Virus record (IMG/VR): IMGVR_UViG_2721755676_000001
DNA: 64,000 nt
Source of the DNA: a virus
Taxonomy: Duplodnaviria; Heunggongvirae; Uroviricota; Caudoviricetes
Reading direction: 5' to 3' (one strand)
Part shown: one piece after another, positions 38,130 through 39,003 of the stretch
Numbering within the stretch: position 1 is the stretch's first letter
Layout of the letters: every line of letters begins with the position of its first letter
The notes under the pieces: model-generated
Databases searched by the model: none
The model's input: only the letters and a program-made list of their open reading frames with translations
Told to the model about the DNA's origin: nothing
Position numbers and translations under genes: made by a program

Positions 38130-39003
38130 TATACAATCAAGAAAACAACTGAATAACAGATCAACGAAACATCAACGCTTTCACCCGATTTGGTCTAAAA
38201 AATTGACGTTTTCACACATCACTGCTTATACCCGTAACTCTACGCAGCAGACAGCGCCACAGCGTCCAATTTTCACCACAGACGACCCAACACACTACCA
38301 ACAAAAACACACGCTCAAAATCGCTCCCGTTGCGTTACACAACCATATAAACAACTTATTTTCAGGCATAACAAAACAACTAAATAACACAAATGCCATT
38401 TCCAAAAACAACCAACCTCTTTATGGCAGGCTACCGAAAAGACCCACCTCTTCTCCCCAGGCTACCGGACAACCAACCTAACTTTCACAGGCAATCCGAA
38501 AACATTCATACGCGCGATACCCACGACACGCCATTCCCCAAACAGCGAAGAACACCAGAATCACTGAAACCCCAACGAAGCCTGTAACCGCAAGGTTTCT
38601 CTCAATCCCAAAAGACACGAAACACAACAATCACGGGAAATGCCATTACCCAATACACGAATAACTACAAAAGCCCTTCACGCACTCCAGACAAACAACT
38701 CAAACACAATAACGAAAGGAATCGCCCACCTGCCATTACTCCATACACGGAGAAGAACAATCACCAAAACGACGAGAACACCCCATAGAAGAACCACCGC
38801 AAAACGAACGAAACCACATACACCGACAGAGAGAACAACACACCCAATTCACCAACAGAAATAGTTGCCGTATAGAACATTCTGGAAGGAGTGAGCATTA
38901 ACGCCTATAGAGAGGTTGAGACAGATAAAACACAACATGTATAGCGAAGAAGCCAGGTATGTATAAGTGGGGAGGGAAGGAGGGGTGTCGCCTCCTTTTT
39001 CGT
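38130..39003 (+). other. A+C-rich, G/T-depleted ORF-poor region; candidate long non-coding transcript ending at a terminator hairpin
   Basis: Top strand dominated by A and C for about 750 bp; only low-complexity ORFs; palindrome motif at 5' end, hairpin GGAGGGGTGTCGCCTCC plus T-run at 38980-39003. Confidence 0.35.

Follow-up and report, generated by a model that had tools for sequence, protein, structure and literature searches.

Genomic location of the A+C-rich segment

We examined a window of 64,000 nucleotides from a virus of the class Caudoviricetes (IMG/VR record IMGVR_UViG_2721755676_000001), focusing on an A+C-rich, G/T-depleted segment at positions 38130-39003 (positions are those of the window unless stated otherwise) that a first-pass annotation, made from the letters alone, had proposed to be a long non-coding transcript or a single-strand-biased DNA element. 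The sequence of the window is identical to that of the Escherichia coli plasmid pSLy3 (NZ_CP015915.1, 114,472 bp); window position 1 corresponds to position 68,567 of the plasmid record, and the window crosses the start of that record. The replicon had been guessed to be a phage-plasmid, and this is indeed the case: pSLy3 is an SSU5-like phage-plasmid with genes for the head, the tail and the terminase, replisome genes of its own (DnaE, a DnaB-like helicase, primase, ligase and RNase HI) and a RepB plasmid replicon, with eleven ACCGCTGACAGCATAC iterons (7255-7792) located on one side of repB. The segment belongs to a 1.56-kb stretch (37994-39554) that is devoid of any RefSeq annotation and is flanked by + strand genes on both sides; it is likewise unannotated in nearly all the records of relatives, where the annotation is automatic. 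A smaller paralogous module, hereinafter module B, is present at the next operon junction (Table 1).

Composition, non-coding status and conservation

The dominance of A and C on the top strand, originally judged by eye, is fully evident in the computed composition. The interval 38130-39003 consists of 38.7% A, 29.4% C, 15.3% G and 16.6% T (A+C 68%), and the most extreme 700-nt window (38161-38860) reaches 72.3% A+C, about 10 standard deviations above the rest of the window, where the mean A+C content is 49.6% (standard deviation 2.2%, maximum 56.3%). Within the segment, the GC skew goes down to -0.49 and the AT skew up to +0.55. The composition is as atypical for the replicon as had been surmised, given that no other 300-nt window on either strand of the entire 114-kb plasmid exceeds 64% A+C. 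The extent of about 870 bp that was initially assigned to the segment holds in part: the A/C-rich body spans about 700 bp, but the last 140 bp of the interval are G-rich. The left boundary had been placed at a promoter-type palindrome; there is no real palindrome at about 38118-38135, and this stretch is not conserved. The conserved features on the left-hand side are, instead, a stem-loop and a promoter-like site (Table 1).

The segment does not encode a protein. The low-complexity products of its open reading frames, the only ones that had been noticed there, derive from mere stop-free runs on the + strand, the start codons, frames and extents of which are not conserved; long stop-free runs are to be expected because T and G are rare, and the frame and position of the longest ones vary among the relatives. 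Mismatches between the segment and its counterpart in SSU5 are spread evenly over the codon phases (66/71/61), between 2 of 5 and 7 of 9 indels in each pairwise comparison break the frame, and 3-nt periodicity is absent from the segment. Having found no conserved coding signal, we rejected the possibility of a protein-coding region on these grounds. A search of the region 36800-40600 against Rfam 15, with E-values up to 1, retrieved nothing except one chance microRNA match, and at the gathering threshold the only match in the entire window is a group II intron located elsewhere.

The segment is widely conserved in related phage-plasmids. Of 5,426 complete genomes of E. coli, 243 contain it, in every case on a plasmid of about 110 kb, and it was also found in 839 plasmids in PLSDB (Klebsiella, 431; Escherichia, 224; Enterobacter, 90; Salmonella, 49; Citrobacter, 25; Cronobacter, 9; and others) and, among phages, in SSU5, Cyrano and phages of Klebsiella. 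In the E. coli clade, the divergence of the segment is 2-3%, similar to that of the neighboring gene, and the full 630 nt are present in all 24 complete loci; the nucleotide identity to SSU5 is 69-77% for the segment vs 62-70% for three neighboring genes. The A/C-richness is retained over the same length in relatives with 61-75% identity. Among the alignment columns, the A+C content is 77% in the invariant ones (45% A, 32% C) vs 64.5% in the variable ones. This difference is the opposite of what mutational bias predicts and, accordingly, indicates that the sequence and the composition of the segment are both selected; judging from the alignment, the composition is kept by selection.

In light of this pattern, it appears extremely improbable that the segment has no function and is either a decayed gene or a product of local mutational bias, such as deamination of an often single-stranded strand. 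The light strand of animal mitochondrial DNA has a similar composition, and the segment sits where module B has its 160-aa gene, with about 600 bp between the 31-nt units and the G-array (see below) in both modules. However, the segment is conserved like the flanking genes and is complete in every relative examined, its bias is limited to 700 bp, and the greater skew of the invariant columns runs contrary to mutational bias, on account of which we rejected a strand bias of the mitochondrial type; a decayed copy of the 160-aa gene was rejected because there is no residual similarity to this gene.

Plasmid pMT1 of Yersinia pestis lacks the whole stretch that holds the A/C-rich element, the loss having occurred at IS1541; because pMT1 does without it, the element is unnecessary for plasmid replication or partition. 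In the pMT1 locus (37900-38750), the equivalent of window positions 16.3-41.4 kb is gone at the IS1541 insertion, and the missing stretch includes nrdAB, thyA, dfr, rnhA, the A/C-rich element and the small genes that follow it; a perfect DnaA box (TTATCCACA) is found just 5' of the retained promoter beside the junction. Several large Klebsiella plasmids (140-270 kb) contain just the first 330-600 bp of the element, beside type I restriction-modification/DUF262 cargo (for example, positions 4001-4600 of the locus from a 205-kb plasmid of K. michiganensis); these look like remnants of phage-plasmid cointegrates. The search for distant relatives through the 131-aa downstream protein identified homologs in N15-like phages (phiKO2) and in a Proteus phage, and these loci contain no units, arrays or palindrome. 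The neighboring small proteins match PHROGs of unknown function only and have no family or fold match. In the literature on SSU5 and pHCM2 that deals with non-coding RNA, promoters or RNA-seq, we found no mention of the segment.

Termination signals and expression

Homology between the clades begins abruptly at position 38018, at the left edge of the locus, where a stable stem-loop lacking a U-tract is located. In four clades, this stem-loop has a predicted folding energy between -13 and -21 kcal/mol; the outer stem does not vary and is retained by RNAalifold, the pairing of the inner stem differs from clade to clade, and TGGCGGTCAC, TTTCTATAAGA and CGTTGATCGCC are invariant in this region. 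On the 3' side, it is followed by a C/T-rich stretch without a U-run. In nine relatives, the stem-loop starts 12-48 nt past the stop codon of a co-oriented upstream gene. At least seven unrelated families are represented among these genes, including cargo such as a metG-apbC insert, a GIY-YIG nuclease and LprI-like proteins. The element lies directly 3' of a site with variable cargo that is expressed in lysogens, and the cargo genes point toward the next block of phage genes. In the window, the cargo at 33526-36898 consists of chromosomal-type apbC and metG (methionine-tRNA ligase) genes next to an IS1 fragment, and Cyrano carries the same pair.

The segment shows a combination of features that is characteristic of Rho utilization (rut) sites. 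Every template with a C>G bubble longer than 78 bp or larger than 700 %xbp that was tested in a systematic study terminated in a Rho-dependent manner in vitro, and the contents of C, CA, AAC, ACA and CAC (%C, %CA, %AAC, %ACA, %CAC), together with weak folding, were positive descriptors of Rho termination (Nadiras et al. 2018, PMC6144790). With the bubbles defined as in that study, the two strands of the plasmid contain 2,813 of them, and the largest one, with an area of 15,704 %xbp, twice that of the runner-up, is the bubble at 37939-38916; this area is about 20 times the published size at which every template terminated Rho-dependently. The bubble is on the non-template strand and runs uninterrupted far beyond 78 nt, with a C/G ratio of 2.1-3.1 in nine consecutive 78-nt blocks. 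The RNA would be untranslated and is predicted to be weakly structured: the folding energy of the body is -0.12 kcal/mol/nt, compared with -0.30 +/- 0.035 for random pieces of the window, and RNAalifold yields no consensus structure for the body, only weak, sparse pairs. The stable U-less stem-loop is located just 5' of this rut-like region. The density of YC (pyrimidine-C) dimers is 14.1 per 100 nt in the segment vs 10.1 in the whole window, and the longest [(YC)N9-13]n chain has 4 members, barely reaching the minimum n of 4.

At the right end, the previously noticed terminator hairpin followed by a T-run is real (38974-39005) but is good only in the E. coli clade, where the hairpin has the hallmarks of an intrinsic terminator; in Klebsiella, where the 9-bp stem includes G-U pairs and the U-run is broken, the terminator is plausible, and that of the SSU5 clade is weak. 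This terminator resembles the one that follows the 160-aa gene of module B.

The sole transcriptome we found is from LF82/Cyrano lysogens under five conditions, for which RNA-seq data were re-analyzed per gene (PMC9928086, tables S1 and S4); Cyrano is 96% identical to the window over the segment. Expressed as log2(fpkm+5), where fpkm stands for fragments per kilobase per million mapped reads, the values are 5.6-9.2 for the upstream gene (CYRAN_102), 2.32 (0 fpkm) in lysogeny broth (LB) and at most 4.27 elsewhere for a spurious open reading frame in the first half of the element (CYRAN_103), 2.6-4.7 for the G-rich end and the array (CYRAN_104), and up to 7.8 for the next real gene (CYRAN_105) (PMC9928086). 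In other words, the 5' half of the segment has 0 to about 14 fpkm and the flanking genes reach about 590 and about 220 fpkm, and the drop of RNA from the upstream gene to the element is at least 40-fold (PMC9928086). The segment is silent between two active units, which implies that upstream transcription does not cross it and that the downstream gene has its own promoter. Given this near-silence in lysogens and the poor -10 of the promoter-like site, the proposed stable transcript of about 0.9 kb is not borne out; the features of the segment fit a Rho-terminated RNA better than a stable one.

Our preferred, if tentative, interpretation is that the segment is a Rho-dependent transcription barrier, or insulator, after the cargo site, with the intrinsic terminator at 38974-39005 as the back-stop; both Rho as the agent and insulation as the selected function are what we infer. 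Under this scenario, RNA polymerase that leaves a cargo gene would first transcribe the stable U-less stem-loop; host Rho would then load on the RNA of the segment, catch the polymerase and release it. The transcript would be trimmed back to the stem-loop that would protect the cargo mRNA, any escaping polymerases would meet the hairpin and the T-run, and the next genes would be driven solely by their own operator-controlled promoter (around 39510). Module B repeats the order of hairpin, C-rich units and new promoter at the next operon junction, which seems to support an insulator role, and only three C>G bubbles on the + strand are larger than that of module B (41481-41815).

The same silence would be expected of a lytic RNA, and the element might accordingly encode a trans-acting non-coding RNA of the lytic phase, namely an untranslated A/C-rich RNA of about 750 nt that would start from the promoter-like site, repressed in the lysogen, end at 38974-39005, and possibly use its repeated motifs to titrate, for instance, a protein or G/U-rich RNAs. 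We regard this as unlikely. The -35 of the promoter-like site is invariant, as is TTGACGTTTT in all clades, the spacing is constant, heptamers flank the site, an operator-type palindrome follows at about +110, and a terminator is present on the same strand at a suitable distance; however, the -10 (TATACC or TATATC) has no conserved final T, so that the site escapes the consensus scan, the SSU5 clade has a weak terminator, and the RNA would be an ideal Rho substrate that could hardly be completed without an anti-termination device. Like the known sponge RNAs (CsrB/CsrC/RsmZ for CsrA, CrcZ for Hfq, the prophage anti-sRNA AgvB vs GcvB), the segment is a long non-coding stretch with repeated, conserved short motifs that would suit multi-site binding, and like AgvB, it has a C/A-rich sequence that could pair with the G/U-rich R1 region of GcvB, the best predicted duplex having -22 to -27 kcal/mol; composition alone would make the RNA pair strongly with any G/U-rich partner. 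A consensus structure is absent. Unlike these RNAs, the segment is silent in the lysogen, has no Rfam match, and pairs with GcvB no better than shuffled sequences; the counts of Hfq (ARN)n/AAnAAnAA and CsrA GGA (ANGGA) motifs are inside the shuffle range in five clades. In the absence of enrichment over dinucleotide shuffles, we rejected a sponge for Hfq, CsrA or GcvB-R1.

Repeats, operator palindrome and the paralogous module

The direct repeats that had been noted inside the segment are indeed present (the GCCATTAC family), and we additionally found three tandem 31-nt units, the best-conserved part of the body (Table 1). The SSU5 clade has six GCCATTAC-type copies, three of which are extended as ATACACGGAGAAGAAC; GCCATTAC is invariant at two positions, and conserved GCCATTACCC repeats also occur inside the segment. 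The invariant parts of the 31-nt units are ACCTCTT, CAGGCTACCG, AAAGACC and CCCCAGGCTAC, and the only copies elsewhere in the plasmid are the two in module B (alignment score 68 vs 28 +/- 4 for shuffles).

Table 1. Features of the A+C-rich locus and of the paralogous module B
Feature	Position	Strand	Details
Heptamers (C)GTTGAY / RTCAACG	38018, 38061, 38160, 38171, 38203 (cluster 38018-38208)	both orientations	plus IHF-like ATCAACGCTTTC
Bipartite stem-loop without U-tract	38027-38071	+	45 nt; outer stem GGCGGTCA/TGATCGCC, conserved
A+C-rich, G/T-poor non-coding body	38160-38865	+	72% A+C; core of C>G bubble 37939-38916
Promoter-like TTGACG-18-TATACC	38203-38232	+	TATATC in some clades; spacing constant in all clades
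Copy of operator-type palindrome AAACAAnTTGTTT	38349-38361		one mismatch here; perfect in the other four clades
Dispersed GCCATTAC(C/T)(C/T)(C/A) repeats	38394, 38530, 38642, 38732 (range 38391-38760)	+	repeat search
Three tandem 31-nt units (ACCnACCTCTT....CAGGCTACCG)	38406-38497	+	repeat search; best-conserved part of the body
G-rich block GTATAAGTGGGGAGGGAAGGAGGGG, then intrinsic terminator	38960-39005	+	hairpin 38974-39000, 10 pairs, then TTTTT
G-array, six degenerate units CAGGGAAAAGG / CAGAAACGG / GGGGAACGG	39066-39190	+	spacing 20-32 nt, mostly ~22
Promoter region of the next operon	39457-39554	+	-10 GATAAT 39511-39516, palindrome 39530-39542, Shine-Dalgarno, ATG at 39555
Module B, smaller paralogous module	41519-42335	+	at the next operon junction
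Module B hairpin	41519-41545	+	
Module B 31-nt units, two	41573-41632	+	
Module B promoter TTTGAC-16-GATAAT	41640-41667	+	
Module B 160-aa gene	41715-42197	+	operator palindrome precedes the gene
Module B terminator	42199-42228	+	
Module B G-array	42245-42335	+	

The operator-type palindrome in the segment, in which TAAACAA is an invariant block, is a copy of a sequence, AGAAAACAAnTTGTTTA, that occurs 15-30 nt 5' of the start codon in at least nine + strand genes of the plasmid, including those for terS and the DnaB-like helicase (window positions 29009, 29738, 36983, 37034, 38349, 39530, 40014 and 51933; record positions 36916 and 39844), with the right arm extending into the Shine-Dalgarno sequence. 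This placement before start codons makes AGAAAACAAnTTGTTTA look like a putative dispersed operator; P1 has dispersed operators for its C1 repressor. The heptamers at the left edge form the sole cluster with at least three CGTTGAY sites per 250 bp in the 64-kb window; the cluster is conserved across the clades and probably consists of protein-binding sites.

Downstream of the terminator, the G-array has only one counterpart in the plasmid, that in module B (alignment score 54 vs 20 +/- 3.4 for shuffles). In Buttiauxella, 53 nt of the array are lost, which corresponds to about two units, and RNAalifold detects no conserved RNA structure in the array other than weak, sparse pairs. Each of the two G-arrays (units CAGGGAAACGG, about 22 nt apart) sits 3' of a terminator, and CCACCAGC, the complement of Chi, is found beside both of them (39386 and 42234), with GCTGGTGG at 42358. 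The complement of the G-array units, CCGTTTCCC, recalls CGTTTCC, the core of the R sites of lambda cosB to which terminase Nu1 binds. In a plasmid of E. coli RHB41 (approximately 3944-5157 of the locus), an IS3 is inserted between the G-rich block and the G-array. Homology to the module B promoter (score 52) is evident in the promoter region of the next operon, where a promoter-like site at 39457-39486 was detected by the consensus scan. Module B itself is kept in SSU5 and in pMT1.

An 8-nt inverted repeat, CTTATACC...GGTATAAG, flanks the A/C-rich body (38226-38233 and 38961-38968) in all clades, the right copy being interrupted in this window (GGTATGTATAAG). An invertible segment was considered and rejected, as the public copies give no hint of inversion: 216 of the 243 E. 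coli genomes show a single match that covers at least 80% of the query, and among the matches listed, the 20 best from E. coli are nearly all one aligned piece.

These repeats could act at the level of DNA rather than RNA, as an array of sites in the same orientation (31-nt units, GCCATTACCC units, heptamers and G-array) for one or more proteins of the phage-plasmid. Such an array could serve as a regulator sink or upstream activating region, as an origin of lytic replication, or as a region recognized in packaging, and the stacking of asymmetric A/C-rich motifs in one orientation would then yield the strand bias as a by-product. This view, which we find doubtful, draws on the position of the module B units, which end about 10 bp 5' of the -35 of a good promoter, as activator sites do, on the recurrence of the units every 30-31 bp, that is, three helical turns, on the iteron-like spacing of about 22 bp in the G-array, with the loss of about two units in Buttiauxella, and on the fact that the plasmid has its own replisome genes and no known lytic origin. 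Double-stranded sites, however, need no 700 bp of uninterrupted asymmetry, and the variable columns are A/C-rich too; furthermore, the segment shows neither 10.5-bp periodicity nor a DNA bending signal. As for an origin or a packaging site, there is no DnaA box within 3 kb and no initiator gene was recognized nearby, pMT1 replicates without the element, the RepB iterons are located elsewhere and are unrelated, and terS is about 13 kb from the segment. No candidate binding protein emerged among the neighboring proteins, and a single-strand-biased DNA element as initially suggested is conceivable, but there is nothing specific in its favor.

Alternatively, the 31-nt units could function in the RNA as a nut-like conditional leader, in which the boxA-like CCUCUU(U)A would recruit a factor of the host or the phage that makes the polymerase resistant to both Rho and terminators, such that lytic-cycle transcription would pass modules A (at the segment) and B. 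The CUCUUUA motif resembles boxA (GCUCUUUA), the units occur in two places only, in the same orientation and each time 5' of a terminator (38974 and 42199), and the barrier would supply a tight off state. Nevertheless, we consider such a leader quite improbable. Neither the units nor the sequence behind them contains a boxB-like hairpin or conserved structure, most clades have an imperfect boxA-like core, none of the neighboring proteins was recognizable as N- or Q-like, and the module B units are located 5' rather than 3' of an obvious promoter.

Weighing the barrier hypothesis

Several observations are difficult to reconcile with a simple Rho-dependent barrier. Rho requires composition, yet the 31-nt units, the GCCATTACCC repeats and the operator-type palindrome are conserved in sequence, and the invariant columns are chiefly A-rich. 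At 0.8 kb, the barrier would far exceed the known lengths of rut sites, and a promoter-like site with flanking heptamers points into it. The element is retained in a relative from K. pneumoniae even though the closest genes upstream of it lie on the opposite strand. In Cyrano, the drop of RNA is already complete about 110 nt past the upstream stop codon, so the stem-loop region alone might suffice. The G-arrays and the heptamer cluster are left unexplained by the insulator model, and the Rho dependence of the element is itself a prediction from the sequence.

A second, regulated layer, such as lytic read-through or a lytic transcript, is suggested by the operator copy, the promoter-like site and the conserved repeats inside the segment. 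In the most far-reaching version of this idea, which we deem decidedly unlikely, the barrier would be a switch: the next lytic gene block would be kept behind the largest Rho entry zone of the genome, to be passed under two conditions only, a drop of host Rho activity, for instance under stress, and the recognition of the 31-nt units by a factor. If such a switch existed, the decision between lysogeny and lysis would be tied to the termination machinery of the host. Alternatively, the promoter-like site might produce a structure-free lytic RNA of 0.75 kb that may occupy, for instance, Rho or G/U-rich RNAs in trans.

Comparison with known systems

The steady-state 3' ends of Rho-terminated transcripts of E. 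coli are located just past U-less stem-loops, with the rut site immediately downstream (Dar & Sorek 2018, PMC6061677). The Rho-dependent barrier proposed here shares with these terminators the U-less stem-loop after a stop codon followed by a C>G region that contains YC dimers, folds weakly and is not translated (PMC6061677, PMC6144790), as well as the sharp drop of RNA in vivo, as observed in Cyrano lysogens. Unlike the usual rut sites, the segment is about ten times longer, is conserved in sequence and not in composition alone, combines a promoter-like site and an operator-type palindrome with repeats, both tandem and dispersed, and is part of the backbone of a mobile element that serves interchangeable upstream genes; its Rho dependence is predicted.

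In phage lambda, nutR-tR1 (rutA/rutB) and pR'-tR' with Q are untranslated leaders between a regulated promoter and the next gene block. The segment resembles these leaders in having a Rho-loading region and/or an intrinsic terminator, and its short CUCUU(U)A recalls boxA. In contrast to the lambda leaders, it has no detectable boxB hairpin, N/Q homolog or sequence similarity, it is 5-10 times longer, and induced read-through is only hypothesized. Cardinale and colleagues reportedly found in 2008 that Rho silences prophages and horizontally acquired genes in E. coli. Here too, Rho would stop untranslated or poorly translated transcripts and mute potentially toxic genes; however, whereas in that case the host targets foreign DNA in general, in this one a conserved entry zone for Rho, built for the purpose, would be part of the mobile element itself. 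The individual parts of the locus, namely the rut-type composition, the U-less protective stem-loop and the intrinsic terminator, are of known kinds; what is unusual is the size, the sequence-level conservation with internal repeats, the paralogous module, and the use of a fixed backbone element to serve exchangeable cargo.

Other features of the replicon

Between convergent genes downstream of module B, about 460 bp of conserved non-coding DNA (42340-42800), also present in SSU5 and pMT1, hold several palindromes (AATCACATACGTGATT and TGTGATTATGTGAA...CACATAAT) and GCGC-rich repeats; this region might, among other possibilities, be a lytic origin. On the - strand, a gene at 44258-44773 encodes an FljA-like protein (Pfam Flag1_repress, E = 1e-68; PHROG "transcriptional repressor"). 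FljA is the repressor of phase-1 flagellin in Salmonella, and the phage-plasmid protein might be a silencer of host flagellin or a phage regulator. A link between this protein and the A/C-rich element through similarity to the fliC 5' leader, the sequence of which was verified against E. coli genomes before the comparison, was rejected because the shared 8- and 9-mers are at the chance level. On the other side of repB from the iterons (9068-9129), there are three TCTAT..GGATCT repeats and a DnaA-box-like TTATTCACA. A group II intron with a reverse transcriptase/maturase (ltrA) gene is located at 3080-5994, inside a remnant of an IS3-family transposase, with the Rfam Intron_gpII match at 5429-5515.

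Implications

SSU5-type phage-plasmids are common in clinical Escherichia, Klebsiella, Enterobacter and Salmonella, and the variable cargo just 5' of the A/C-rich element includes resistance and defense genes. If the element is an insulator, this would explain how these phage-plasmids can take up and express almost any cargo gene in the lysogen without activating the neighboring phage genes, and constructs could reuse it as a compact terminator module powered by the host. If, on the other hand, the element turns out to be a regulated leader or to give rise to a lytic RNA, it would offer a handle on the lysis-lysogeny circuitry of this family, including the plasmid-wide palindrome AGAAAACAAnTTGTTTA.

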